64,000 nt of DNA, from positions 1 to 64,000 of the forward strand of contig ML002234.1 in the NCBI GenBank assembly GCA_003614675.1, given 5' to 3'. The stretch's first letter is position 1. Each line of letters starts with the position of its first letter. The notes under the pieces were generated by a model, which saw nothing but the letters and a program-made list of their open reading frames with translations, did no database searches and was not told the origin of the DNA. Positions 4,227 through 40,288 of this stretch are shown here, one piece after another. Origin of the DNA: Dimargaris cristalligena. Its lineage: Eukaryota. Both the position numbers and the translations under genes were made by a program.

Positions 4227-5293
4227 TTAAGATCTGGGCTTCTCCTTCTTTTCCTTGTACAGGGCCAGCAGGGAGACACCCGACACCTTGACGACCTTGA
4301 AGCGGACACCTGGGATATCACCGACAGCACGGCCCTTACGACCGAAACCGGAGATGAGGACTTCGTCGTTTTCGTCGACGTAGTTCAGACAACCATCGTT
4401 GGGCACGAAAGCGGTAATCTTCTTGCCGTTCTTGATGAGCTGCACACGGACACACTTACGAATGGCAGAGTTAGGCTGCTTGGCTTCCACACCAATCTTT
4501 TCCAGGACAATACCCTTAGCGTGGGAGGAGCCACCGAAGGGGGAGGACTTGAAGGCAGTACCGAGGGCGCGCTTCTTGTACTGCTTGTCCGCCCAGCGGT
4601 TGTTACGGCGGGTGACGCGGAGCTTGCGGGCGGCGTGAAGACCTTTAGGTTTACCTGTGGAATGGGAATGGACCAGGAAATTGGGAGTGGGATAGTAAAA
4701 GGCATTAGTGTGGGTAATCGGTTAACGGAATTGTAATGTAAACAAACACCGGCGCTGTGGTCAGGAATGTTGATAAGAGCCTCGCTACAGCAAAGGTATA
4801 GGAATGCTATAAATTCTGAATGCGCTGACTGGACTATCCGATACCACACTGCCGACGACTCCAACTACAAGCTTGTAGCAACCGATAGTGCTAGACCGTT
4901 AAGCACACCACAGTTCGACTAGGGGTAGTCTCACTTAGGCACATAGTCGAACACAGTATCAAGCGGGTTACGGCCTTCGTTCGCAGATGAATGGATGGAT
5001 GGATAGATGGTCGGTATGGTAATAGACACCGTATCGCGTAAGAGGAGGGCGGGCGATATCAATACGATACCTTAGTAGTCGGTTGTTGAATCCAACTAGC
5101 GGTATCATCGACTATCCATCCATCCATCCATCCATCCATCCATCCATCCATCTGACCAACAGGACACAGAAAACCTGGAATTGACATGGTCAGTGGGCAC
5201 AGTATGGATTCGGCGACGAGCGGGGTATCGGACGAGTCAGGCGGTTCGAGCGGGGGACGTAGAATTGGAGATTGAGGCGGCGGACATACCCAT
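4227..5293 (-). CDS. RPS23: 40S ribosomal protein S23 (uS12), 2 exons: 5293-5290, 4654-4227; 143 aa
   Basis: ATGG|GTATGT donor and CCACAG| acceptor. Spliced product [14 protein letters not shown]...[19 protein letters not shown]...KEKKEKPRS. Confidence 0.97.
4734..4908 (-). ncRNA. Candidate intronic box H/ACA snoRNA in the RPS23 intron
   Basis: Hairpin, AUAGCA (ANANNA, 4810-4805), hairpin, ACA (4739-4737). ACA lies 14 nt from the 3' upper stem and about 80 nt upstream of the 3' splice site. The 5' internal loop is complementary to a conserved LSU rRNA segment. Folded by eye only. Confidence 0.45.
4984..5154. repeat. Inverted repeat formed by complementary (GGAT)n and (ATCC)n tracts inside the RPS23 intron
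   Basis: CAGATGAATGGATGGATGGATAGATGGTCG at 4984-5013 versus CGACTATCCATCC...CCATCTG at 5109-5154. Confidence 0.8.
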
Positions 5294-17762: not shown

Positions 17763-20115
17763 TCAGGAAGATTCTACCGCCCGGGTTGTTCATGCCAACA
17801 AACCAGCCAGAGGTGGTTACAGTAACCAAATGGTATTGAACATCCCACCTAAGGGATTCTTAATGACCCCGGATTTAAATGGCTGCCTTAGCTAACCACG
17901 AAGAACGCCCAAATATAAGATATAATCCAACATTCTCTGCCATATACTTTGTAAGAATAAACTTTGAGACAACTCCAATGTAACTTTTTTGGTCCATTTT
18001 GTAAACCAATATTTTTTAGGAAAGCTTTAATTTATTCGTCGATACCAAAAGTAGGAAGAGTAGTAATTTCTACCAAAATGAGGGCATGAACTTTACTCTG
18101 GAATATCCCGAAAGCGCAAATAGGTACGCATACTTAAAGGGCCGTTGGAGTAGAAAAAAAGTCGATGGCCAACTTTAAAACTACCAATTCTATAAGAGCT
18201 GTCCCACTGTAGCTTGGCGAGTATAAAAACAGTGGCAATTAGCCCTTACTTTTTATCAAAATTAGTTTGCCAGTATCGGTCAGATTTTAGGATAATGGCC
18301 CAAGCTCTTCAGGGTAATATTGGATCTAGCGATGCTATAGTCAACTGTCACGGGCATTTTTGGGGATAGATAGTGGTCAGCGACTTCACTCCTTGAGGTC
18401 ACCAGGGTCACTATCATTCAAACAGCCACCTCTCTCAGCATGCAATTTCAGCAAGAGAGCCCAGGATCGTCGATGAAAATATGGGGACATACCCATATTA
18501 ATTTGCAGGTCCCTACACCGATTGCGTTTGTGCAGACGGGCGCACTTGCGGAAATTAAAGAGGCGGATAGGTGAGGGAATGTTGGCCTAGCTGGAATTTT
18601 GCCAACGGCCCTGCCGACCTGTGGACCTCTATAGTGGTCTTTTATACTGTACATGATTTTGGCTTTCTATTCCGCCTCGACAACTATGGTCCTTTCCCAT
18701 TTCCGCATCACTCTATTCCCCAATAGTCTCACCTGCTCAGTAGATTTATCACTCAACCTCGGCAGTCGCTTAATTAAACCACACCCCAGGCGGTAACCCG
18801 AATAAACGACGACGGGTATTAGGGTCAGGCCCTTATTAAGTAAATATCGCAATCTATACCGTTCTTCCGAAGCTCGAATTTCGCACCTTTCCCGCCGGGA
18901 CCTTGGCTTCTACGGGTTACATTGCCCACCTTTTCGACTCTCTTTTATAGGGATAGCTTCTTGGAAAGAAATTGGCATTTCTCACCTAGCCACTTTTCAA
19001 TCAAGGAAAGTAAATTATAATGGCGGGTATGCCAATGGGTAATACTAGTCGGTTGTAGGCCAAAACTGCAATGGAGATCTCTTTGCGTCTTTTTTTTTTT
19101 GTTTGAAGGGGGACGCTTCGTAAAACCCCCTCATTTCAAGGGGGTCATAAATATCCGACCAACCTTTTTGGGAAATGACTTTCCTGCCAGTCGCAGATTT
19201 TTCTCTCCTCTCTATCCCTCTCTCTGTTAGTCTCCTGCTCACATATCCCGAGCCAAGGGATCGACTAAATGACCGGTGCCCAATCGTGAGTCTCGAGGAT
19301 GCCATTATGGAAAATAGCTTGGAAACATCGATGTTCGATGGAACATACCCAGTCCATTATTGAAATGACGAGGGGACAAACGGAAAATTTGATATCAAAG
19401 AAATGGTGGTAAAGGTTGGCGATAGGGTTAGCGAGCCCCGTATGCTCTCCGGTGCAAACACAAAGACAATTGTACACGAACGAGAGTAGACTTGGCACCA
19501 CTATCCTAGAGGTCGGGGATCTTTTCGAGCGTTAGCCAATATTGGGGTGCTAAAGGCACAGAGGTAGGCGGGTCTTGTCGGGTATAGTCTACATCCCCTA
19601 GCCTACGTTTACATTGAAGACTCCTCGAAATTCTTGCCTTGGCATACTGTATCGAATCTCTATACATGATCCACCCTACTAATCCATTGGATATATAAAT
19701 GGTGTCTTTGGACACTATCGTAAAATGCATCACTTCATACCTCTTCCTCATCTGGGAATAGCTTCTCACCGACTCCCTGCTTTTCATACATTTAATTCAC
19801 AGCCATTCGACAGTCACAGTTTAGGTTATCCACTCCACCCAACTGATATCTTGTTTATTTCATCTGGGTATACCTCGTGGATATCACTATTAGTTGCATG
19901 CCTGTGAATTGACCTGCCACCCCCCTCCCATATAATTATTTTAGCTAAAATACACCCAGTTGAGAATTATGAAGGATTCGTTTTTTATTTATTGACTATA
20001 CATTGCCACATTTGTTAGCCTGTTTGTTTCCCGTAACTGCACTCACTGTATCTATTGACACTTATGCCATTGCTTTACCCATCAGGCAGTTTTCAAGTAA
20101 TACCAACCTCTCATA

Positions 20116-21216
20116 ATGGTGGCTCGACTCATTTTGGTCGTCGGCCTTGGGGCCTGTCTCTTTGCCCTGGCGCAAGCCCACATGGCCATCTATGACCCTT
20201 GTATTATGGACACCAGAAACGACAAATGCAAAGGTTTCGGTAAGGTCGACTACGATATTGCGTCACCCACTGGCCAGGCCCACCAGTACGACGACAAGAA
20301 TGGTGTGGAGAATCTCAACGGCGGGGTTTGCCGTACCATGCCGAACGAAAAAACCGCCGTTACTTGGGCCGCTGGCAGCACCAACACCATCACATTTGCC
20401 AACCACGGCAGCCATAAGGGCGGCTTTTGCGAGTGGGCCGTATCGTACAATGAAGGGGTCACATTTGTCGTTTTCAACACCGACCTGAACTATCTCAAAG
20501 ACGCCAAGGACATCGAAAAATACTCGGAGAAGTTGACGTTGCCCGCGGGGTTGCCCAATGGCAATGCGACTATTTCGTGGACTTGGGTCAATCGGGAGGG
20601 ATTCCGCGAGTTCTACTGGAGCTGTTTCCGAGCGCAAATCACGGGCAGTACGGCCACGTCGTTCGTGGGCAAACCGCTGGCAATTTTTAATTTTGCCTTT
20701 GTCCACAACGGCAAAGCCATGGCCTACGTACTGCCCGAATTCAGGAATAAGAAGGAATACACGGAGTTGTACACCAACCGCCCCGATATCGAAGTATCGG
20801 CTACGACGGTGACCGGTGGGGAAGGGAGTATTTTCCCGCTGAAACTGGAAGGGGCCAAGGGACTCAAGGTAAAGTACGAGGACTGTCTGTACATTCCCGA
20901 TAAGATGCCGGTGGCTTTGACCAACAACGGCGTCGAAAGTGTCGCTAAAATTGCCGCGGCCGCCACCGTAGCTGCCCTTCCCGCCATTATACCCCTACCC
21001 GTCGTACTACCCCCGGCCAAGGAAGGTACCAAGGACCTGTCTAGGGACGACGACCAGAAGGACCAACCTAAAGGCGACGATAAAAACGAGAATAGGGACA
21101 AGGATAACAAGAAAAATAGGAAAAAGAGTAAGGACAAGAAGAGAAAGAGGAAGAATAAGAAGCACCGCAAGAACAAGACCAGAACTAAGGTCAGAAATAG
21201 GAGCAGGCCCATGTAG
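20116..21216 (+). CDS. Secreted AA11-like lytic polysaccharide monooxygenase with Lys/Arg-rich tail (366 aa)
   Basis: Signal peptide ending AQA|H exposes His1. SHKGGFCEWAVSYN and LPNGNATISWTWVNREGFREFYWSC match the AA11 motifs HxGGxCQxS and WTWxNxxGNRExYMNC. Confidence 0.8.
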   Translation: MVARLILVVGLGACLFALAQAHMAIYDPCIMDTRNDKCKGFGKVDYDIASPTGQAHQYDDKNGVENLNGGVCRTMPNEKTAVTWAAGSTNTITFANHGSHKGGFCEWAVSYNEGVTFVVFNTDLNYLKDAKDIEKYSEKLTLPAGLPNGNATISWTWVNREGFREFYWSCFRAQITGSTATSFVGKPLAIFNFAFVHNGKAMAYVLPEFRNKKEYTELYTNRPDIEVSATTVTGGEGSIFPLKLEGAKGLKVKYEDCLYIPDKMPVALTNNGVESVAKIAAAATVAALPAIIPLPVVLPPAKEGTKDLSRDDDQKDQPKGDDKNENRDKDNKKNRKKSKDKKRKRKNKKHRKNKTRTKVRNRSRPM

Positions 21217-23514
21217 CTAGCACCGATGATCGCGACTATCCGACCCGCTGTAATTAAAAGGACAATTTCGCCGAATGGACTCTCCATTTCCCCTCCCTAT
21301 GATTTATATTCCTCGACCTATATCTGTTCACTCGCCCAGTATAATATGTAAGGATACATTGGCATTCTTCTCCCTACCACTCTCGCCTCCACTGTCGTTA
21401 TCTGTGCAATATCCTCCGATTTATGTGTTAGACTGCTGGTCAGTCTAGCGGATATCGGTATTGTTCCCCACGGAACTCGGCATACGCCAATAAAAATACC
21501 CGTTTTTTATGCCAAATCCAAATGGTCTTGACCCTCCATTTATGTGCTGGATTATTTGAAGTTGAACATCACTTGGATAAATTTTGGACAATATGATTTT
21601 TTTCATTTACTTGCCCAATACCAGGAACCGGTCCATACCGGCATTCTATCGGGTATTCGCGTGGCTCCTACGGTGCGGTGCTTTAGCCCTATGTAGAAAG
21701 TAGACAGTGTGTATTCACCTGTATTTCAAATATCTCTCTCGCTCTTTTGGCCCACCTATTAATTACCAGCCTGCTCATTGAGCCGTAAATGGTTACAGTA
21801 TGGCCAAGATATCACTCGTTTATTTTACCATTAAATCTGCCGGTAATGTAAATTTAGAGACGGTTAATGTTCTTTTATCACGGGGCACATGTCTTGCCTT
21901 GGGATACGACGGGATGAGGCGGTGTATAGCCAGGGATCAATCGGCACACCACCATGTCATGGAGTAGGCTTTGGTAGGAAGGAGGATGTAGAGGCGGCAA
22001 GCTGATCCTAACGAACGGGGGGGGAGGGTAATGGACCAAAGAGGTAGACTCCGATCCAACTCGGGCCCCGCACGGTGACGCTGAGGCCAACGGCGGGGAG
22101 GGTTGGTAAGAAATAAGCGGGAGTAACCCCCAAACCAGTGAGGGGATATCTAGGCGGGTAGGCCATCCCACGAGGGTAAATGGCCGACCGATTATGATTT
22201 CCAAGAAAACAGATACTCCGGCCCATACACTTTCGGTAACCATACACCCCCTCCCCTCATCTAATAGCGGTACCCTGCCTAATTAGTATGCGACATTTTT
22301 TATATTGAAAACCCATGGGCAATATAAAGCAGGGGTGGTATAGCAGTTGGAGAAGGCGGTGGAATAGTAATAGGACAGCCGAAGGTCTCGGGATTTACCC
22401 GCCTTTGTCCAATCCCTTACTATTCGCCTTCACAATCAGATGGGTTGAAGAACCAAGGAGATGGATCGGGAATAAAGGGTGTGGGTTGGTCAGGGAGGGA
22501 GGGAGGAGGAGGGGGGTATCCCTCACCCTCCACCACCGCCGGTAGAGCGGAAGGACCTAGCTACTGCGTGGGTAACCGATTTCGACCCCATGTATATAGT
22601 TAATTTAATTTAAAAAAGCATCGAGATGAAGAATATATAAATAAAAATACAGCCTTTTTACTGCAGATTTCGTTATAAAGCATGGACACTCTTAGTAAGA
22701 TTGAGTTTGTAAAATAATGAAATGTTCGGCTCTATACCGGATGGACTGGAGACTCGCACAGTTTGACCCTTTTGCCGGTGCATAAAATGGCCGAATGCAG
22801 GTGAGAAGAGGCCCGCCAAAGCCGCACGGGTTGCTCCCTTTTCCCCCAATGGCTCTCGTCTGGAACGCTTAGGCCCCTCTGTCGAAATTGACAATGGCCA
22901 AGATCATCTGGGTGACCCAGTCCGATCGGGACATCGTTAGTTACGCCGATAATTGGCCTGAAGCAATATACAAGGGGGTAGCTGTTGCGCAGGCGACAGT
23001 CGCATCCATGGGATCTACCTCCCCCTCTTCGCTGCGTCGGGGCGGCTGGCGATACTCGAAGGGGGATGAATTCCATCAAAGAGTTGCAACCACCACTTAT
23101 CCGAAGTACTTAAGGCCGAATGTAAAACAGTGCCCGAAGGTATCCCACCTTCGCCTCGCCGAACTTAAATACGGGCCATCCCGCCCTCAAACTAGCATTC
23201 ATTAAGCCAGTTTCCCAACCAACTCCTTTCTTGATTTTCTCTATATCAGCTGCTGAATTCTACATCACACATCTCTGTGTTTGTCCTGTTTTGTATAATA
23301 CCGACTTGTAGCTTGCTTTTTATAAGAACGGATTTCTGCGTTTCCTGTTCCTACCAGCTGATGTTTCGAGAAAATTTTGATATATACGATTAGTCTACTC
23401 CTCTTTTGCTTAATTCGGTTCCATCTATTCAACGGCGTGGCTTGACTGTTTTGCCGTTACCTACATTTACCTATTTAACTTCTCTCCGCCCAGCGCACCA
23501 TTATTACACCCACC

Positions 23515-24780
23515 ATGGTGGCTGCCTACCTAACTATGTTCGGCCTTCTGGCCCTTCCACTCACCTTAGTCCAGGCCCACTTTACCATCTACGACCCCTG
23601 TATTCCGAAGTCCGAAAATTCCAAATGTGCACCAAAGTTCGGCGCTAAAGACGATAATGCTGCGGCGCCTACCGGCCAGGGCCTCCAGTACGACGACAAG
23701 GGGGGTGTGACTAATCTCAATGGCGGGATTTGCCGTACCATGCCGGGCACGGAAGTCGCCGCCACTTGGGCCGCCGGCTCTACCAACAAGATTCAGTTCA
23801 TGAACCACGGTAACCATAAAGGGGGGTTCTGCGAATGGTCTATTTCGTACAACAATGGCAAAACATTCGTATCCTTTGAATTCAATAAGGATTGTTTAAC
23901 GGATGCTTCCACTGAGCCCGCTAATGACGCCGAATTTTACAACATGAACCTGAAACTTCCGGCCGGGTTGCCTGCGGGTAAAGCCATCATATCGTGGACC
24001 TGGGTGAATCGCGAAGGGCACCGCGAATTTTATTGGAATTGTTTCCGCGCCCAGATTACGGGTGGTACGTCCACGTCGATTACGGGGCCTCCCGTGGCGC
24101 TCTTCCATTTTGTGTTCACGCACGGGGGTAAGAAGATGGCCTACGTGTTACCCGAGTTTGCCGATGATAAGGACAAGGAACCTTTAGTAACTTACTACAC
24201 CTCCCGTACGGATATCACCATGACGGTCACTACGAGCGGCGCGACGGTTACCGGCGGCCAGGGCAATATTTTCCCCGTCATCATCGAGGCTACAAAAGGG
24301 GACAAACTTGCGGGCGGGTCGTGCAAATATATCAAGTCTGGCGATACCATTGCAGCCCTGCCTAACAATACTGGCGATGGTGGGGCCGGCTCAGCTAAAA
24401 CTACAATCACGACGACTAGTGGCACTAGGTCCGCCCTTCCTCCACCGGCCAGTCTGGTAGAATCCACCGACAGTACCGAGCTCAATGCCACTACTGATGG
24501 CGACGTCAGCGGTGGTGCTGAAATGACCGACGCGTCCACCAGCTACAATAACGACGAAGGTGATGAGGATGGAGATGAGGATGAGGACGAAGACGGCGAC
24601 GACGGCGATGATGACGATGATGATGACGATGGTGATGACGACGGTGATGACAATGGTGATGATGATGATGATGATGATGATGACGGCGACGACGACGAAG
24701 ACGACCACAAGGGAAGGGGGGGAAGGGGGGGAAGAGGGGGAAGGAAGGGCCGGAGACACGACGACGACGACGACGAATAA
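23515..24780 (+). CDS. Secreted AA11-like LPMO, tandem paralog with Asp-rich tail (421 aa)
   Basis: VQA|HFTIYDPC, NHKGGFCEWSISYN and SWTWVNREGHREFYWNC. Collinear with the 20116 gene over the first 270-290 aa or so. Confidence 0.8.
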   Translation: MVAAYLTMFGLLALPLTLVQAHFTIYDPCIPKSENSKCAPKFGAKDDNAAAPTGQGLQYDDKGGVTNLNGGICRTMPGTEVAATWAAGSTNKIQFMNHGNHKGGFCEWSISYNNGKTFVSFEFNKDCLTDASTEPANDAEFYNMNLKLPAGLPAGKAIISWTWVNREGHREFYWNCFRAQITGGTSTSITGPPVALFHFVFTHGGKKMAYVLPEFADDKDKEPLVTYYTSRTDITMTVTTSGATVTGGQGNIFPVIIEATKGDKLAGGSCKYIKSGDTIAALPNNTGDGGAGSAKTTITTTSGTRSALPPPASLVESTDSTELNATTDGDVSGGAEMTDASTSYNNDEGDEDGDEDEDEDGDDGDDDDDDDDGDDDGDDNGDDDDDDDDDGDDDEDDHKGRGGRGGRGGRKGRRHDDDDDE

Positions 24781-26860: not shown

Positions 26861-29403
26861 ATGGCTGATCGCAACGGGCCCGTCAACTACCACGAGGACG
26901 ACCCCACCGGGTCGCACCATTCCGCCCCCACCCACCACCACGCTCTTTACCCGTCCACGCTACTGCCCGCCCATCCCGTCGCCCCGCCCTACGGCTACTA
27001 CCCTGCCAGTCTAGCCGCCGCCACCGCCGGGGGAGGTTCGGGGGCCGGCCTGCCGCCGCAGATCGGCCAGTCGGCTTCCGCCGTATCACCGCCCACTTCG
27101 CCCTATGCTTCCCCCGGGCCCACCAGCCCCTACATGACCCACAGCCCGCCGCCCATGTCCAGCGCGGGCGTCGGGGGTAACATGCACCTGCAATCCCCCC
27201 CTACTTCGCCGTACTTTTACTACAGCCATTTCATCCAGAGTTTCGATCCCCGCCACCCCGGGTCGCCGAATGGCCTTGTTGCTGGCACCCCCGCCAGCGC
27301 CGCGATGGGACTGGCCAGCCCCGGCTCCTTGGGGTCCCCCCGGGGTATGACCCTGACCTCGCCCTATTCCGCCACCAGCCCCCTCATGATGTCGCCCGGC
27401 GGCACCATGGCCGCAGCGGGTCTGGTGCGCGGTTACCCATCCGCGGCTCTGCTCTCCCCCGGTCGCCACCCGGACTCCCTGAGTCGCCAGGCGGCCTACG
27501 AACTGGCCCGGGATAACACCAATGTGTATATCCGTAATCTGCCCAACGATATGACCGATGATTCCTTGAATCGCATGTGTTCAGCGTAAGTCCATCTGCT
27601 TTATCTACCTGCTGGCTGGAACCAGGGGTGGGCAACTTTTCCCACCCACACCCCCATCAATCTATTTATAATCAGGCGGAGGACGGTGTTGCGGACATGT
27701 GTAGTATATATTATATGAAGGGGGGGGAGTGGTGGTATGGTTGGTAGACATTCCTTGGTTTGGATGATTGATTATATGCCCCCTTGTTTTGGGGCAATCT
27801 GTGGGACCTTTTTCCCCAACATCCGAGCCCTGCAATAGTCCTTTTAAGTCACCCCATTCACTTTCTCCCCAGTGCATTGTTTTCTTCCCTTTTATGACAC
27901 CTGTTTATTCCTTTATTATTATTATTATTATTATTACTATTAGTAGTAGTAATAGTATTTATATTAATATTTCCACTGCCATCATTAGTGCGGTGACTTT
28001 TAATTAGCAGGGATCTTACTTGATATATTCTTTATCATTCCCCTTGTATATTTTACCATATGCCATACCCACAGATTCGGGAAGATCACCTCCTCTAAGG
28101 CCATTCTGGACGAAACCACCCAGGCCTGTAAGGGCTTCGGGTTTGTCATGTACGAGTCCATTGATGAAACCCACCACGCCATAATCAAGCTCAACGAAAT
28201 GGGCTACCAGGCCTCCTTGGCTAAGGACTCGTTCAAGACCCGCCTTAAGAACATGCAGGACAAGTCCTCCACCAATGTGTACATCTCCAACCTGCCGCTT
28301 AACATGACCGAGGCCGAGCTGATTTCCCTGTTCGAAAACTACAGCATCATTTCGCCGCGTATCCTTCGCAAGGACGAGGAGAAGGCTAGCCGCGGGGTTG
28401 GTTTTGTCAGGTAAAGTGCCGATCCATGCGGGTAGTTGTAACGATTCAACAGGTTTGATGTGGAGTGTAACCGGCCGGGTTGGGTTATTACCTGCTATGT
28501 ATTTTTTTTCGAAAAGGGTGGGGGGTAGGTGTGTATACATAATTGTCGTGTTGCATTTATGTACATCGGTGTCCCCCCTATGAGCATATGCCCTAATCAA
28601 TCACCCTAGAATTCTCGCGGATCTATTATATTTCCATCCTACCCACGGGCTAATCTAACGGTCTATTAATTTGCTATTTTGCGCGGCATTCCCACAGACT
28701 GGCTGACCGTGAATCAGCGATCGACCTGATCCAGAAATTCAATGGCAAGACTTTGCCCGGTGGTACGGCCCCCCTCCAGATGCGCTTTGCCGACTCGGCC
28801 GCCCAGAAGAAACTCAAGAGCCAGACCGTTAAGCGTCGCCCGTCGCGTTCCGGCCGGGACGGTGAAGGGGAGTCATCGCGCTCGGGTCGGGACTCGGCTG
28901 GACGAGCGGGCAGTAGCGGTGGCAGTGGGGGCGATGGTTTGGCCGAACTGGGCCCCGCCATGTATTACCCGGGTCTCGCCCACTCGGGCAGCCTAGCATC
29001 GGCGATGCTGCCCCCGATGTACGCGGCCCATCCCCACCCGCACGCCCATGCCCACCCTCATGCTCACGCACATGCCCACGCCCATGGACACCCTCCGCCT
29101 TTCCCCCACTTCCCGGTGGCGCCCATCTATTCGAGCTTGGCTCTCAATCCCCACTACCAGCCGAGTATCGATCAGCTCACCAGTGGGGGCCATCCCGCGG
29201 CCATGGGACATCCCCGCATGCACCACCCGACTTCGCCGCATTCGTTAGATGCTAGTATCAGCGGCAGTAGCAGCGGCACCGGGCATACTGGCAAATCGAC
29301 GGCAGCCTCATCCACCGCTGCTGTCGCTTCGGGATCGCATCCCAGCCTGAGCTCGCCGGAGGACCAGTTGAGTCATATTACCGAGACTAAGCTAACTCTG
29401 TAA
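26861..29403 (+). CDS. Two-RRM RNA-binding protein, RBMS/MSSP-like, 3 exons: 26861-27585, 28075-28410, 28698-29403; about 588 aa
   Basis: RRM1 has TNVYIRNLP and CKGFGFVMY. RRM2 has TNVYISNLP, SRGVGFVR and PLQMRFADSAAQKKLK. Low-complexity Pro/Ser and His-Ala/Pro flanks. Intron phases are consistent. Confidence 0.88.
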
Positions 29404-31860
29404 TTAAGGATTGTTCTCTGTTTTCCCAGCAACTCGGGTATCGCCTTCAATTTCCCCATTGATGCATTTTATTTAGTTATCTTTTCGATTTGGTCAATGA
29501 TTTGACATCTTTATTTACTTATTTCTCTTTTTTATTACTTGACTCGGCTTTAAGTCCATTTATCCTTTGATGAACTTTATTACTACCTCTCCCTCCCCTT
29601 CATTGCCACATTTCTCTTTCAGCGAGTCTTTCTTGCTGTGTGTCGTTCCATTTCCCGCCACCACCAGTCGTTGCACCCAAGCGTCTTCGGATTTTAATTG
29701 ATCCGGTTCCATTACTCCTTCCGCATCTCCCTTGTCTCTTTTCATTTCATTTCAGCTTTATTTTTTTTTGGCACCACCCTTCCCTCCCATTTATATCCAC
29801 TACTCCACCCCCGCACACCCATTTCCTTCCCCCACAGAGCCTTACCTCCCTTCTTTGGCCCAGTTCGTTGATTAATTAATTAATTCACCTCTTTTTATTT
29901 TTATCTTATTACATTTAACTACCGTTGATTCCCATGATTCAACCGTGATTTTATTACTTGCTGTGTTAGCCTTTTCCTTATTATCATCATCCACTTGATC
30001 TGATTTCTAAATCGCTTTATCCCCACCCCACAGCCCTCACCCCCCGGGCTTCACAGCCGCACTAGTATTGCCCATGTTAACTTGATGGTCTGACCTTCTA
30101 AACCGGGTTTGGAGTTGCTTCTGCTGGATAAAAGGCATCCAGGCTAAATATGCTGGTTAGGATTAGAAGCGCTTACCATTGTGTTTCCCCACCATTTCTT
30201 CACATTATGCCCTTTAGAATTCCATTTAATCTACCGAAGTAGTGATTACTGGGATCTGAAGGGCAGTAGTTCCTGATAGATGGGAGAATCCTATCCAATA
30301 CATCTGGGACTCCTCCGTTTTTAAATCAGTTCTTACTCTGGTTGATTTCCACTATACTATTCAGTCCCCTACCGCGGGCCCCAATTCATCCATCTGGATG
30401 CCCCCGACACCATATTTATATGGAGGGCAACTATATCGAACCCACCCCTTGGTCATCAATTATTCACTGGACCGTTGGATACCTATGGTACTACTACCAT
30501 GTTCTATTACATCATTGGTACAGTAGCCATTTGCTTTACCTGTTGCTTATTGCTTACTCACAGTTACCTATAGCTACACTTTTACCCACATACATAACCG
30601 CTTGCGATTAATTTACAATAAAAAACGAACCCTTGGAGTTTGGTAAGCATAGTATTGGGAAATGCCCGCTACTGACCTACCTGATATGGCTCGATACGGG
30701 TTCTGTCCCTGGTGGCTTAATTTGTGGTTGAAAGGGTATCTCGGGTCGCCGAGTGTTTCATGGATATCATGCATAGAGCCACCAATTAAAGCCCTATAGC
30801 TTGCAGGAATTCTTCAGGGACCCTCCCCCCCTTCATCCCAACAACAGCGGAGTGAATAGCTTATGCTCTACTCTCACCTGATTTGCATATGGCAATAGTC
30901 CACGATTGGATGGCACATGAGTAGGTGGCGGGGGATTGTGACTGGCCTCTTCTCTCTCCTTTAGTACCGATTGCCCGATATGCCAATAACTTCATCCCAA
31001 CGCTGATTAGTTCGTAGGTGAATTGGGGGGCAAAGGAAAGCAGGGAACAACGGGGTCATTACACCTCTAATTGCACAGGGCCATTAGGGGCCCATTTCCC
31101 TAGTCAGCCTGTGGAGGGCTTTGACTTTCAGCTGCCGACCATTTTCACGTTCACTTTGCGCATATAGAGTTAGTCAGTTAGAGATTACGTCGTGGATCCC
31201 ACTTGGACTCGACCACGGGACTAACTATCCATGCCCAATTGTGTCTGCCAGCCATGGGCCCAACAGTGCTTCAACAACTGATATAAAATGGATGTCATCC
31301 GCTGGCTGGTCGATGTCCCAAGGCTATCTCGTTGTTTGTAATCCCGCCATTTAACCAAGTATTGTTTAATTTTTGGTATTCCACATCTGCTGCAACCCAC
31401 TCATACCCCAAAGCGCAGCCAACCTCGTACGTACCTTTAGGGTTCTTTGTTCCACACTTAGATAATTCCGTCGATTTTCTCAAGGTAGTTTGTTGAAACC
31501 ATACAGCCAGCTATATTCCGCGGCTCACCTGCCCATTCTATCCACAATTAATCTAGTCGTTGCCGCAGTCAACCCTCTAACCCCATCTTGGTCCACCCGA
31601 AATACTCCGAAAGGAAAGGAAACCCCACCCGCCGTAACGAACGCCGCATATACACACACACACACACACAAACGTATTCGCCTACCCGTCTCCCCTCGTA
31701 CATTCCCAATATCCTCGGCACTTTCACGGCAATAATTGGTTGGGGATACTCTTTAGGCCCTCCCGCTTACTCTCTCGGTTGAAAACTCCCTCTCCCTCTG
31801 CACTTTCAGGATCCGTGTGTGATTATTTTTACTTTCATTTAGCCGTTTTGTCCCAGATAG

Positions 31861-32454
31861 GTAAGTGGAGGTTCCACAGACCATTAGCATTTAGTGGTGG
31901 GGTGATTATCCAGGACTTCTTCCGACTTGTTTCGTCCCTGTTTTTCTTCTCCTCCCCTCTTCTTTCTCCAGTGCTTTCTCGGGGGCTCTCGTCCCTGATT
32001 ATAGGGGTGGTGAAATAATTGCCGTTGACCTATTGACTTTCTGTTCAAGGAACAGCTGGTGTGACCGGGCACTTGGCTTTGCGTGTCAAGTATTGGCTAA
32101 GGTTCTAGAAAGCCGCTTAGGCCACCCGCCCTAACTGGCGGTGATGGTGATGGATCTTGCTGGTGGCCTGCTTTAGCTTGGCTCTCTGCATGTATGTTCT
32201 TCTTTGTATGCATATGTCCTCCCCAATGTGGTTAACCGCGGGGGGAACGCATAGAGCCGAAACTTCATCCCGATGGGTTAATTAATATTCCCTTTGGGAT
32301 TGATTTCCTACCCTCGAATCCCCCCCGTCTTCGTCTATTGCGTTGCCCACCACCACCACCCGCCTATCCAATGCATCCCTCCCCTATTCCATCCATACAC
32401 AGTGGGTCCATGACTCACCCCCCCCCTCCTCCCCCCCCCCCCCCCCCTTCGCAG
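31861..32454 (+). other. Putative 5'-UTR intron of the aspartate aminotransferase gene
   Basis: AG|GTAAGT donor at 31861, TGACTCAC branch-like site near 32411, long C tract and TTCGCAG| acceptor ending at 32454, 34 nt before ATG 32489. Confidence 0.55.
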
Positions 32455-32488
32455 GTAGTATATAGAGCACTTCTTCGGCTTCCCAACC

Positions 32489-34679
32489 ATGGCGTCACCT
32501 CAACTCTCTCCCCGCCCTACTCATTCCCCATTGGCCCGTCTCCACCTCGTCGCCCAACACCTCCGCTCCCCCTCCACCATGTCCGAAGGTACCGTTGGCT
32601 TCACCTTTACCCTGTTGTATTCTATCCGCTCCCTTCGGCGGTTAACGGGGGGCAACCTGCCTCCACGTCCCCGAATTAACGGCAAACTTGGTGTGACTAC
32701 CCTTTCCCCCATTATAGACCCTGTCTAAACACACCTATGTGAGCACTGTTCTCCGGACTAATCTTACGCTTCGTTAACCACAACATTTTTACTCCCCCCC
32801 CTTTTTCACCCATGGCTCACCGCATACGTCTTGGCTTTAGTCTCCGCTTTCGCCGATGTTCCCCTGGCTCCCCCGGATGCCATTCTGAATCTCTCTACCA
32901 TGTACAAGAGTGACACCTCCGACCAGAAAGTCGATCTGGGCGTTGGCGCTTACCGTGATAATGACGGTAAGCCCTGGGTGCTCCCCGTGGTTCGCAAGGT
33001 ATGTCATAAGTATTCTGTCTCCCAGGTTGTAAATTAAATAATCGGGAACCGGCGTCTGCAAGACGGGTCTCTTATGGGTTTAATATACTCTGTATTACGA
33101 AACCAGGTTTAGTCATCAAGCAAAGGGTACCGCCGTGCTCATTCAACTGTGGAATCCCTGTCCTTTTGGCTGTAATAGTCTGGGTACTGGGGGGGGGGAC
33201 ACTTGGGTACCTTGGCCCTCCCCCTCGGGAAGCCGGGCCTCCTGGGTGATGTGCTCGTGCCTGCCTGTGTTTGATCTATTGGCCAACTAAATATATGCTT
33301 ACGGGGCCCCCTCTTTTAGATCTACAGTGGCGGTGCTTTTTTCGTTTCACCAACACCATTCCGCCACCTTCTCTCTTCCATTGCATATTAACCATCTCTT
33401 GATTATCCCTTTATTTAATTTCTCCGTCTGGGACACCTCTCCTTTTACGTTTGATATAGGCCGAGAAGCAGATCGCCGACGCTCAACTCGAACACGAGTA
33501 CCTCCCTATCGCTGGTCTCAAATCATTCACTGACGCCGCGGCCGTTCTCTTACTCGGATCCGATAACCCAGCCATCGTTGACCAGCGGGTAAGTGTTATT
33601 GATTATAAATATGCACTTTATTGCTTCTCGATTTACACATACCTCAACATATATATATGTATGCATTCTAGCCCAGTATAACAATTCGTGGAGACTGGAA
33701 ACCATCTAATTACTTACTCACATCCTGACCTATTCACTCTTATTCATTTTACTAGGTTGTGAGCTTCCAGACCATCTCCGGCACTGGCGCCAATTTCCTG
33801 GGGGCTACCTTCCTGTCGCGATTCTACCCCAAGGGCACCTTGGTGCTTCTGTCTGACCCTACCTGGGCCAACCACAAGAACATTTTCAACTCGGCCAGTC
33901 TTGAGACCCAGGACTACAAATACTACGACCCAGCCACCCTGGGCTTGGACTTGGCCGGCATGCTGTCCTCGCTTCAGGATGCCCCCAGCGGCTCGATTGT
34001 TTTATTACACGCCTGCGCCCACAACCCCACCGGCGTGGACCCTACTCAGGAACAGTGGAAGCGTATCGCCGATGTGATGCAGGCCAAGGGCCACTTCCCT
34101 TTCTTCGACTGTGCTTACCAGGGTTTTGCCAGTGGTGATTTGGATAGAGACGCCTTTGCCATCCGCTACTTTATCGAACGCGGCTTCGAATGCTCCATTG
34201 CCCAGTCATTTGCCAAGAACCTTGGTCTTTACGGCGAGCGCGTCGGCTGCTACCATGTGGTTACCCGCAACGCCGCCGTGGCTAACCAAGTACGGAGCCA
34301 GATTGCCCGGGCCTCGCGGGCTATCATTTCCAACCCTCCGCTGTACGGTGCCCGCGTGGCCAGTACCGTGTTGAACTCTCCCACCCTGCTGGCCGAGTGG
34401 AAAGACAGCTTGCGATTCATGTCGGGTCGAATCCTCGACATGCGCGCCGAACTGCGCCGGCTCATGTTGGAGAAGGGTACCCCCGGTAACTGGGACCATA
34501 TTACTAGCCAGATTGGCATGTTTACCTTCACTGGTTTGAATCCTGAACAGGTTAACTACATGGTTAAGAAGCACCATATTTATATGACCAAAAACGGCCG
34601 CATTTCCATGGCCGGTCTTTCTACTCACAATGTGCAACATGTGGCGCAGGCCATCGATGATGTCGTGCGCAACTATTAA
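32489..34679 (+). CDS. AAT2: Cytosolic-type aspartate aminotransferase with optional PTS2 extension; exons 32489 (or 32579)-32588, 32841-32998, 33460-33588, 33756-34679; 436 or 406 aa
   Basis: APPDAIL, KVDLGVGAYRD, QTISGTGA, LLHACAHNPTGVDP, FFDCAYQGFASG, PLP-lysine motif QSFAKNLGLYGERVG and GRISMAG. Splice phases are consistent. Confidence 0.95.
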
Positions 34680-36134: not shown

Positions 36135-39100
36135 TTAGCAACGTTCAAAGATCTTGTAAAGGTCGGGTAAATCCGCGAGCTGAAGCAAACAGTGGGCTTC
36201 AGCCAAGGACGGTGGCGCAAAGAAGTGGGACTTAAAGGCTGGGAAAAGCGTATGTTGGATACAATTCCGGTACTCCCGCATTTCTTCGGTATCCCAGGCC
36301 TGCTCGGGATCAAAATCCCCCTGATGATTGTCGGGAAAGGGGTCAGTGAGGACCAAGGGGGGTGCGGGACTATAGAAGCGGGCCAACTCGCGGCTAAAAT
36401 CCCGGAAACACTGCTTTTCCTCCTCCCAGTTTACCTAAATCGATTGGTGAGCAAGGGAATTGGGATATACGGTGAAGATATAAACACGAACAACAGGGGG
36501 AGTGAATTTTCGTTAGGGACTGGGTTACCAAAAATAAAAAGTACAATGCAACTGGCGGACCGTTCTATAACCCGGATAAGGGTGAAGTGGATTATAAGGC
36601 CCAGCCGCTAATGGAGAGCCGTTCGCGGTATGAATATTCCGTCTTACCGCCGTCGTGATACGTAATAGAAATAGAGGCAATTTCAAAAGGTTGGGAGTGT
36701 AGTTGGGGATGATCAACGGCAGCGACTGGAGTTCCCCCCGGTCGGAAACCACCAAATAAAAATACTCGTCAAGCATCTCCCGCCGGGACACGATGAGGTT
36801 CGTCAGGACCTACAATAATCATGATTTTTCAAAAAATGGCACCACCGGTTGGGATACACACATGCACAAATAAGTAAAAAAAATCTAAAAATCAGGGAGC
36901 CTTCAATTTGTAATGGCTATAAATAAACAATGACTAAACAATTTTATCAGCATTCCAAACCCTCTATTACCTTAGCCTGGACCCGATATTTGGCGTCTTC
37001 GTCCGATTGGAAATTACTGTCACTATCCCCATTGACATTCTCATCCTGGCCTCTGGACACGTGCTGTTCGCGGAGCGCTATCAAGAACAGCTCAGTTAAC
37101 GACACGGGCGGGTCAATCTGGATGGCCCCAAAGTTACAGAATTGGAGCAGTGTCCGTTGGTAAAATAACTCCTCAAGCGCCCGTATATAGTTGATCATAT
37201 ATAAACGGGTTTCGTGTTGAATAAGAGCTCGGCTATAATCCACCAGGCCCACAAACGTGTGTCCATTTAACAGACGGGTCAGCTCTGGAAATGTGTATGT
37301 GTGGTGCAATTAGAAATATGGCGAATGGGCCAGATTAGGCAAGAATTTGATAGTTCAGTTGGCTGACCAGATAATAATATTTTTATAAAATGATTGACCA
37401 AGGTACCGCATATTCAACATACCTCGGTGGTGGTTAGATTGCACCTCGTTACGAAGCTCCAGGATACTGGTGAGTCGAACCTCAACCTTGGGTCGGATCG
37501 CAAAGGTGCCATCTGGAGTGGGCGCTGTTTCGGCCTCCGGACTAATAATTGGTAGGGCTCAGTGAGGTTATATTACCCGGGATTGGTGGCTGTTAGTCGG
37601 CAATTCTTTAGCAATTAGAACACTATGGAAGAGTACCCAATATAAGGTAATGTATAAGTTATAGACAATCTAATGACAGGGACTTACGCTGGGGGTTTCT
37701 CAGTCTGCTCTGGCCCATGGTTAGGTTGTGGTACAGGATCAATGATGTTTGATGAAAGAGTTGAGCTGTTGTTTGGTGGTATTAGAGGTCGGGAAGATAA
37801 CTCCACTGGTATTCGAGGGGGAACCATGGTTGGAGGCGAGTGATGAACCGAACTATCGGGCGGCCGGTTTCGTTGGGCCAGCCTATTCGATGGACCTGGT
37901 TTAGACCGGGGCGTTGAAGTAAACGTAAAACTCTCCAAGGTTCTTGACCGAGTATCCGTGCGAACCAGCTTATGTTCGTACGGCCGGGAATTAGAGGTAC
38001 TAGGGGTAGAAGGAGCGGGGGCGGGAGTAGAGGGGGGCGCACACTGGGTAGGGCGGTGGAAGTCGAGATGCACATCGATTCTATCCTCCGCCATGGGCGT
38101 GGCTAGGAGAGTCTGTACCTGATAGGTGCGGGATTCGCTCGAGCCGGCTAGGGTGGACTGCAAGGCCTCGGCAATGGCTATGGTGATTTCGTCCTCGTGG
38201 AGAAAGTGGACCTCCCGTTTGGTGGGGTGGACATTCACGTCCACATTCTGGGGATCAATGGAGAGGCTTAAATAGACAAAGGGATGGCTGCCTTTGGGTA
38301 GTACCGTGGTGTAGACGCTCTCGATGGCCTTTTTGAGCGAGCTACTGTCCACCAGGCGGTGGTTAATGAATAGCAGAAACTGCATCTTTTTGGTACTGAA
38401 ATTGGCGTTGGTGACATAACCCTTGGCCGTGAACCCTAAGTTTGCGTGGGCGCATTCCAGTTTCAGCAATTGGGAACGAATCTTGCCTCCGTGGGTCTGA
38501 CTGATGATATCCACGATGGAGGCTCCCACGGGGGTATGAATATCCGTGGCGGTAGTCCCGATCTTTTTGCAACTCATACTGACGCCGGCGTTATGAATAG
38601 CGTAACGGCTCACGACCTCCAAGATACGATTATATTCATCATTGATATTCTTGAGCGCCTTGCGACGGAAGGGAACGTTATAAAAGAGATCCTCCACCAG
38701 GATCTGGGTGCCCACATTACCGGCACACGGCTTAGGGTCTGTACTCGTGCCGGGTTTGGCAGGCACGAGTTGGCCATCGGCATATTTAGCGCGGTACGCG
38801 CAGTTGGACTCGGCCGTACGGGACGTGATGGTAACGTGGGCAATGTGACTTATACTGGCCAGCGCTTCCCCGCGGAACCCGAACGTCTGAATCGAGCTGA
38901 GGTCCTCGAAAGTTTGAAGCTTACTGGTGGTGAACCGCTCGCATACCAGGGGTAGGTCGGCCAAACGAATGCCATGCCCGGAATCCTGGATTTGCAATTG
39001 TTTGAGACCGCCATCTTTGGCTAGGATTTGGATACTCTGGGCCCCCGCGTCGAGGGCATTCTCCAGGAGTTCCTTGAGGGCGTTGGCCGGCCGGTGGATA

Positions 39101-39204
39101 ATTTCGCCCGCGGCAATGCGATTGACCACGGTGGGGTCCAGGCGCCGAATGGGCTTCGGGGTAGATGGAGGAGGTGCGTCCGCGGAGGGGGAGGTGTCGG
39201 CCAT
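36135..39204 (-). CDS. MLH1: DNA mismatch repair protein MLH1, 5 exons: 39204-37688, 37541-37423, 37284-36971, 36809-36648, 36434-36135; about 803 aa
   Basis: [47 protein letters not shown] and the diagnostic C-terminal LYKIFERC*. Confidence 0.97.
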
Positions 39205-40288
39205 GGCGTGCCTAGACCTAGAGGTCGGGAAAACGAGCTTAATCGGCGAGGTGTTGGGGAGTAAAAAAGAGGAGAAGGGTACGCAATGCAAGGTGCGGAG
39301 TCGATGGGGTTAAGGCCCAGCTGAATGGGAGAATCTCTCTTGTAAAGCGAATGGGCTTGAAGGGACTGCAAGTCAATCAGACGCAGCTTGCCTCAAGTTG
39401 CTCTTGGTGGCGGCTCTGTCTGATATACACAAAATACCTTGTTTGCTGCGGTGAAAACAAGGGAGCTTGAATTCACTATAGGGAAGCCTCCCCCGGCCGA
39501 ACTGGCTAGGTGTAGTGAGAGCAATTTTGTTGCCTGACCTAGTCATAGAGGGTGGCTGGGACTCACATTGATAGGGAAAGGTAAAGGAGTAAATTTGGTG
39601 CGACGCATTAGGGCCAGCCGGAAAATATGCTAACGCACTTTAATGCCATGACTGCTATTCACTAATAATTAAGTCGATTATTAAACACGGTAAAGACATT
39701 CCTTGTAAATCCGTTTTAAATAATGAGGGACCAGCGGAATATCACCTCATTAAGAAATCCGAGTATATAGCCTGTATAGTTAGTTGTACAGTGGATAATA
39801 ACCCGATACGCGGCATAGGAGCAGGTGCCGAAGATGCAAACAGTTCGAGCCTACCGCCGAATCAAGCACCCATCTCCGCCATGGCCTCCGATATATTGAT
39901 ACTAAGGTCTTTGTGGAAAAGCTGCCTTCTATCCTCCGATATATTGGCTGCAAGGTCCGACGAGGGCTTGGCCACACTGCACACTACCCACAGATCTACT
40001 TAACAACTCCGGCTGTCAAACAGCCAAGAACAGCTGAGAAACCCCTCATGACCTCCACCAACTCTGTCATACAGCGCATTTATCGATGATTGCCCGCCGT
40101 TACCTCTGTCCTTTCCCGCCATATCCTCGCCTGCTTTTGTCTCTGTTTCTTGTTTCTCCATAACCTTTTCCTTTACCTCATCTGCTACTTTGGTTTGAAT
40201 CCATTCCAGGGGTCGCCGTGGCCCTGTCTCAGCGCGTTTACTTTACCCTTTTCGCCCCCATTGGTCGCCCATTCTACAGAACTTACTT

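Follow-up and report, generated by a model that had tools for sequence, protein, structure and literature searches.

A putative PTS2 nonapeptide between two in-frame starts of a cytosolic-clade aspartate aminotransferase gene in Dimargaris cristalligena

An aspartate aminotransferase (AAT) gene of the mycoparasite Dimargaris cristalligena has two in-frame ATGs in its first coding exon, with a nonapeptide resembling a PTS2 encoded between them, and it raises the question of whether one gene could supply this enzyme to the cytosol as well as to the peroxisome. The gene lies on the + strand of the window, by which we mean the whole 64,000-nucleotide stretch of DNA that was analyzed. It has four coding exons separated by three GT-AG introns of 252, 461, and 167 nt and encodes 436 amino acids from the first ATG, as follows.

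32489-32588, + strand: first coding exon, which contributes only its final 10 nt to the short isoform
32589-32840, + strand: intron 1 (GTACCG...TAG, 252 nt), which gives a homologue-like motif-to-core spacing of 47
32841-32998, + strand: coding exon 2, placed by identity with the public model P0001
33460-33588, + strand: coding exon 3, placed by identity with P0001
33756-34679, + strand: coding exon 4, placed by identity with P0001, with the PLP-lysine motif, the PF00155 match, and the VRNY-stop end

Identity of the enzyme and its N-terminal extension

From Met31 onward the protein is 100% identical with a public D. cristalligena aminotransferase of 406 amino acids (P0001). The product matches Pfam PF00155 (E 1.2e-83), its closest solved structures are AATs (E 2e-138), and it keeps PTWANH, HNPTG, FDCAYQG, SFAKNLG, SRAIISNPP, and GRISM, which we take to be the AAT active-site motifs containing the PLP lysine and the substrate-binding arginines. 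Sequence scores against solved structures do not by themselves separate cytosolic from mitochondrial AATs. In a tree of 52 rows, hand-picked from about 550 proteins, P0001 falls inside the fungal cytosolic AATs (support 99/97), where it joins Dispira and D. verticillata; animal GOT1 is the sister of the fungal group (99/98), the whole cytosolic clade has support of 99/99, and the mitochondrial AATs form a separate clade (100/96). The Dimargaris gene is a cytosolic-clade (GOT1/Aat2) aspartate aminotransferase.

The surroundings of the gene are ordinary. Pfam identifies, between positions 4230 and 59158 of the window, ribosomal S12/S23, an ABC transporter, Ssl1, ClpP, a Med16-like protein, a 2OG-Fe(II) oxygenase, a class 3 lipase, and a PBD-kinase; an RRM protein lies at 28004-29403 and a MutL-type mismatch-repair protein at 37687-39309 (- strand). 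No peroxin was detected among the 20 ORFs of the window scanned by Pfam. Two tandem paralogues at 20101-21213 and 23479-24777 (both + strand), 56% identical over 285 amino acids, have no Pfam match; each begins like a signal peptide, with His next, and their tails are long, of low complexity, and acidic or basic. The product of 20101-21213 shows similarity to solved AA11-type lytic polysaccharide monooxygenases (7p3u, E 7.7e-13; 4mah, E 6.5e-7), and it is plausible that the pair are secreted chitin-oxidizing enzymes of this mycoparasite.

The features of the 5′ coding region are the following.

32489-32491, + strand: first in-frame ATG (CCAACC ATG G), start of the long isoform and of the public model P0121
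32579-32581, + strand: second in-frame ATG (TCCACC ATG T), start of the short isoform of cytosolic length and of P0001
32489-32578, + strand: 30-residue N-terminal extension, with a Pro/Ser-rich lead, the PTS2, and a short Ser/Pro/Thr linker
32537-32563, + strand: PTS2 nonapeptide RLHLVAQHL, residues 17-25, matching all four consensus forms tried

The two ATGs share a frame and are 30 codons apart, and this frame is closed by a stop codon located 33 nt upstream of the first. The first has A at -3 and G at +4, the second A at -3 only. RLHLVAQHL meets the strict consensus R-(L/V/I/Q)-x-x-(L/V/I/H)-(L/S/G/A)-x-(H/Q)-(L/A), as given in the available part of PMC4585086, and has no internal proline. 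It lies near the N terminus and is followed, before the conserved core, by the Ser/Pro-rich RSPSTMS, a linker judged from its sequence to be unstructured; it precedes the core anchor motif by 47 residues, as compared with 43-56 in homologues. The strict consensus has four matches among the window's 127,996 six-frame codon positions, or about 7e-4 per 30-residue stretch, and stop-free shuffles of the extension match it in 18-22 of about 77,000 cases (2-3e-4), so that the probability of a chance match in the extension is about 2-7 in 10,000; none of the other three matches is at a gene start. The codon-usage score of the extension is 0.50 in its own frame, versus 0.47 and 0.57 in the other two, and does not distinguish the frames. 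At the C terminus (VRNY*) there is no PTS1. Read-through was considered as a source of one, but the extended protein would terminate with IFRLA*, not a PTS1 sequence. An earlier note on this DNA had reported the two well-placed starts, the fit of the nonapeptide to the PTS2 consensus, and the lack of a PTS1 even on read-through, and all three observations are borne out. We conclude that the extension is real and that its nonapeptide is very probably a working PTS2.

The same note had described the extension as hidden, which is correct for P0001, a model that begins at ATG 32579 and does not have it, but not for a second public D. cristalligena model, P0121, which already begins at ATG 32489. 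P0121 uses a later first donor that inserts 34 residues and increases the distance from motif to core to 81, against 47 in the four-exon model; because this is outside the range in homologues, the donor was rejected and is probably wrong. The two public models therefore each hold half of the picture of the gene. A D. xerosporica model (P0124) apparently also contains a retained-intron insert.

Occurrence of the motif in fungi and beyond

The 120 best matches to exon 4 yielded 89 usable proteins, after 31 without a Met start or the anchor had been dropped, and these divide into 30 short and 59 long forms. The loose motif R-[LVI]-x5-[HQ]-[LIMF] is present at equivalent spacing in 58 of the 59 long forms, with 21 conforming to the classic and 14 to the strict consensus, whereas shuffled extensions match at rates of 1.0% (loose), 0.3% (classic), and 0.01% (strict). 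The last motif residue is Ile in 18 and Met in another 18 of the 58, both outside the strict consensus. In 53 of the motif-bearing proteins a Met coincides with or follows the final residue of the motif, and the remaining 5 have no second Met. Carriers in this set include Thamnocephalis, Gigaspora, Phycomyces, Umbelopsis, Aspergillus, and Parastagonospora.

A second search, using the first 75 residues of the Thamnocephalis protein P0010, added 113 proteins (1 anchorless, 49 short, and 63 long) and extended the sample to Agaricomycetes, Ustilaginomycotina, chytrids, and Dissophora. Here the motif occurs in 37 of the 63 long forms (Laccaria, Violaceomyces, Boothiomyces, Entophlyctis, and Dissophora being among the carriers), a set enriched for it because the query carries it, and is accompanied by a second Met in 31 of the 37; among the 26 long forms without it, 19 belong to a weakly matching tail that is mostly mitochondrial-type or non-fungal. 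The motif thus recurs in chytrids, Mucoromycota, Basidiomycota, and Pezizomycotina, but it should be recognized that the homologue sets are not random samples, since two of the searches had motif-bearing queries and close relatives are counted repeatedly.

Metagenome DNA provides a view that is independent of annotation. Among the best 80 of 542 matches, 9 are anchorless, 44 are not fungal-like, and 27 are fungal-like; 23 of the last group contain the motif in frame (one with Thr as its last residue), with an in-frame ATG on both sides of it in 22. Two of the loci, L001 and L002, have no introns and look like transcripts, and since the first ATG is part of both, long transcripts may well exist in relatives. 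A search for the motif in related fungi, which the earlier note had proposed as a check, has a positive outcome over a wide range. Within the Zoopagomycota, besides the Dimargaris gene, the motif was found among the models compared only in Thamnocephalis (P0010), where there is no second Met; the models of Dispira, D. verticillata, D. xerosporica, Piptocephalis, Syncephalis, and Basidiobolus are all short, in a comparison that covers annotated proteins for these fungi, the nearest Dimargaritales included.

Some fungal orthologues have near-miss motifs at the conserved place (RAx5HL, RIx5YI, RPx5HM, and RLx5HT, in P0313, P0317, P0318, P0350, L041, and L059); these are perhaps variants of PTS2 that are tolerated, or signals in decay. 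The C terminus of a minority of orthologues is a PTS1-like AKL (P0087, P0104, P0113, P0310, P0341, P0353, and P0360) and that of a Stentor protein, P0453, the PTS1-like PKL. The PTS1-like ends suggest repeated PTS2-to-PTS1 switches or double signals.

Outside the fungi, a search with the motif-bearing protist protein P0405 gave 120 rows, of which 6 were dropped, in a sample biased to ciliates by the choice of query. The loose motif is present in 50 of its 63 long forms and 10 of its 51 short forms, as compared with 2% of shuffles, but a second Met accompanies it in only 10 of the 50 motif-bearing long forms. The ciliate carriers are Tetrahymena (RIAELSSQI), Ichthyophthirius, and two species of Paramecium, and the available text of PMC3178647 lists Pex7 for Tetrahymena; the models from Stentor and Blepharisma are short and have no motif. 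All eight named long forms from plants contain the motif, four with a second Met. The green alga Tetrabaena carries RLTVLARQL in P0283, a protein found by eye in a 50%-identity representatives search, in which orthologues are collapsed and most rows were missed by the anchor pattern. Those non-fungal carriers that were placed in the tree group with the fungal and animal proteins in a single cytosolic clade (99/99).

Two probable isoforms of a single gene and the alternatives

Initiation at ATG 32489 would give a 436-residue form, the RLHLVAQHL helix of which would be bound by Pex7 and a co-receptor for import into the peroxisome, and initiation at ATG 32579 a 406-residue cytosolic form. The production of both by one gene, as the earlier note had proposed, is the best reading of the locus and a likely one, supported by the motif, its spacing, and the conservation of the second Met. 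The region upstream of the first ATG contains further candidate features.

31282-32143, + strand: candidate upstream promoter TATAAAAT (at 31282) and a long ATG-free leader region
32413-32454, + strand: candidate 3′ splice site of a 5′-leader intron, with a branch-like ACTCAC (32413), a 95% pyrimidine run, and CAG (32454)
32459-32466, + strand: TATA-like TATATAGA, candidate promoter of a short transcript, 30 nt before the first ATG

Two mechanisms for making both isoforms can be compared. In the first, a long transcript with a spliced leader would arise from the upstream promoter and have ATG 32489 as its first AUG, and a short transcript from the TATA-like box, with its 5′ end at or just past ATG 32489, would be translated from ATG 32579; in the second, leaky scanning would operate on a single transcript. 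Leaky scanning is not favored because the first ATG has the better context here and in relatives, where position -3 is a purine for 18 of the 20 first ATGs compared but for only 9 of the 20 second ones (near-identical pairs being counted once); the weak -3 base of many second ATGs reflects the preceding His codon, which fixes that base. On the basis of this bias, the TATA-like box, the acceptor-like site at 32454, and a long ATG-free stretch, we lean toward two transcription starts.

The TATATAGA element is one of only two TATAWA sequences between 31000 and 32850. No other ATG-to-ATG gap on the window's + strand is as long as that of 831 nt (31313-32144), and simulations attained this length in 0 and 2 of 1000 cases, although the gap was noticed after the fact. 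This leader region contains a donor-like GTAAGT at 31861 and an acceptor-like CAG at 31971; strong acceptor-like sites are seen at 31971 and 32454, the latter part of a tandem CAG-GTAG acceptor at 32454/32458. Possibly, the whole of 31282-32458 (+ strand) serves the AAT gene as a long 5′ leader that is spliced more than once. The exon that the earlier note called exon 1 is indeed a coding exon but, given the 3′-splice-site-like signals 34 nt upstream of the first ATG, is perhaps not the first exon. The promoter layout is not regarded as shared with relatives, because fungal-like loci with enough upstream DNA have no TATAWA within 200 nt upstream of the first ATG. Two other comparisons do not discriminate. 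The 1848 nt between starts that were compared contain no out-of-frame ATG, against about 10.7 expected at the rate of downstream exons, but recoding and codon-shuffle controls predict only 0.8-2.1 and the deficit is not significant against the recoding controls (P 0.09-0.40). The RNA of 32455-32620 is predicted to be less structured than shuffles (z +1.7), with no hairpin to steer the choice of start.

Of the explanations that dispense with a two-start switch or with a PTS2, the one that survives best, though we consider it unlikely, is that only the long form is abundant, with cytosolic activity arising from incomplete or regulated import and Met31 being a remnant. The stronger context of the first ATG, here and in relatives, would fit this, as would the lack of a second Met in 5 of 58 close homologues and its presence in only 10 of 50 proteins of the ciliate and plant set, and the available part of PMC3798809 documents proteins that reach two locations because their signals are weak or regulated. 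It does not explain why 53 of 58 close homologues retain the second Met within a linker that is otherwise not conserved, or why the ATG of Met31 combines an A at -3 with a position corresponding to the length of cytosolic AATs.

It is still less probable that the extension is a mitochondrial, or dual mitochondrial and peroxisomal, presequence. PTS2 and presequences are both amphipathic helices (PMC4585086, in the part available), and the extension, with a net charge of +3, no acidic residue, and abundant Ser, Arg, and Leu, does resemble 15 mitochondrial-type presequences (median charge +3). However, four of its first 15 residues are prolines, its hydrophobic moment is low (no more than 0.5), Asp or Glu occurs in 63 of 94 homologous extensions from fungi (median charge +1), the motif is absent from all 15 presequences, and the enzyme falls in the cytosolic clade. 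A comparably low probability attaches to an extension that is ancestral but unused in Dimargaris, as an untranslated leader or through loss of the PTS2 pathway in a mycoparasite: the short models of all the nearest relatives would agree with it, but an idle signal should decay, and here a perfect strict match is combined with an open frame and an ATG in optimal context, while loss of the PTS2 route among fungi is cited, in the accessible text of PMC7710942, only for rumen fungi and Microsporidia.

Relationship to known systems and ancestry of the signal

By every feature testable here, the Dimargaris gene appears to be a PTS2-bearing cytosolic AAT of a kind already noted in molds and plants. 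Soybean AAT1 is a PTS2-bearing AAT with two starts. The plant peroxisomal enzymes belong to the same cytosolic clade as the Dimargaris AAT and likewise have their PTS2 in an N-terminal extension, but plant extensions are longer, with the motif 58-70 residues before the anchor as compared with 43-56 in fungi, and plants keep separate short cytosolic AAT paralogues in addition to the peroxisomal enzyme. The signal is described for Arabidopsis ASP3 (RIx5HL) and rice LOC_Os01g55540 (RLx5HL) in the available text of PMC3355810, and for Arabidopsis, rice, and tomato AATs in the parts of PMC3355810 and PMC9328179 that are accessible.

The earlier note attributed the Dimargaris arrangement to a plant-like route, in contrast to yeast. 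This is not supported: the arrangement is common in fungi and the yeast PTS1 is the exception. In the available sections of Thomas et al. 2018 (PMC6099311), a PTS1 or a PTS2 is ascribed to most Aat2 proteins of yeasts and fungi, and the alignment there, which includes nine filamentous ascomycetes, marks a putative PTS2, citing Kiel et al. 2009. Nothing in the present results points to a borrowing of the fungal PTS2-AAT from plants. Filamentous-ascomycete Aat2 proteins (Aspergillus, Neurospora, Penicillium, and others) are orthologues with a nonapeptide at the same distance from the core and then a second Met. They differ in that Dimargaris belongs to the Zoopagomycota and has a strict-consensus motif, whereas many ascomycete motifs end in Ile or Met, and in that the Dimargaris gene has an intron 10 nt after the second ATG; their PTS2 is called putative, and two starts are not discussed, in the sections of PMC6099311 available. 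The same sections describe two other orthologues with dual location: Saccharomyces cerevisiae Aat2, found in cytosol and peroxisome, has a C-terminal PTS1, which the Dimargaris enzyme does not, and that of Hansenula polymorpha is Pex20-dependent, with no recognizable PTS. Nannochloropsis AAT is assigned a PTS1 in the accessible text of PMC7710942.

Single genes that supply isoforms with and without a signal are known for other proteins, and the available part of PMC3798809 includes Aspergillus nidulans idpA (alternative transcription starts), Candida albicans Gnd1 (a spliced-in PTS2), and watermelon Hsp70 (two start codons); AAT is absent from the dual-targeting cases given in that part. Our literature searches, with subscription journals mostly outside their coverage, found no account of a PTS2-bearing AAT in Zoopagomycota, Mucoromycota, chytrids, or ciliates, or of two starts in a fungal AAT.

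With respect to function, the peroxisomal malate-aspartate shuttle proposed in the earlier note is unsupported, since deletion of AAT2 in S. cerevisiae causes no β-oxidation defect, and yeast uses a malate/oxaloacetate shuttle (PMC7829553, in the available text). The peroxisomal role would more likely be oxaloacetate/aspartate transamination tied to fatty-acid and glyoxylate metabolism, as opposed to an essential NADH shuttle.

The PTS2 of cytosolic-clade AATs may have been inherited from the last eukaryotic common ancestor instead of being invented separately, a suggestion that we regard as tentative and somewhat short of probable. It stems from the similar spacing of the signal, among the lineages sampled by name, on orthologues from five sampled fungal phyla or subphyla, land plants, a green alga, and ciliates. 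The alternative, convergent gain, is conceivable because such signals are short, and it may account for the distribution. If the origin is ancient, AAT would be part of the ancestral set of PTS2 cargo, fungi would have kept the signal as a two-start switch with alternative transcription starts, and budding yeasts and some other lineages would have replaced it by a PTS1 or lost it.

The putative PTS2 of filamentous-ascomycete AAT is now extended to an early-diverging mycoparasite. The feature itself would be no great surprise to peroxisome specialists, though its breadth across fungi and ciliates and a possible ancient origin add some value. Since the signal and the second Met are widespread in fungi, a peroxisomal isoform has probably been overlooked in many genes with short models. 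The Dimargaris peptide, which fits the consensus perfectly, offers a clean means to examine the use of Pex7 by fungal AAT, and loss of the first ATG alone would isolate the peroxisomal need without harm to the cytosolic enzyme. That the signal has been kept in fungi, plants, and ciliates alike points to a conserved need for it.
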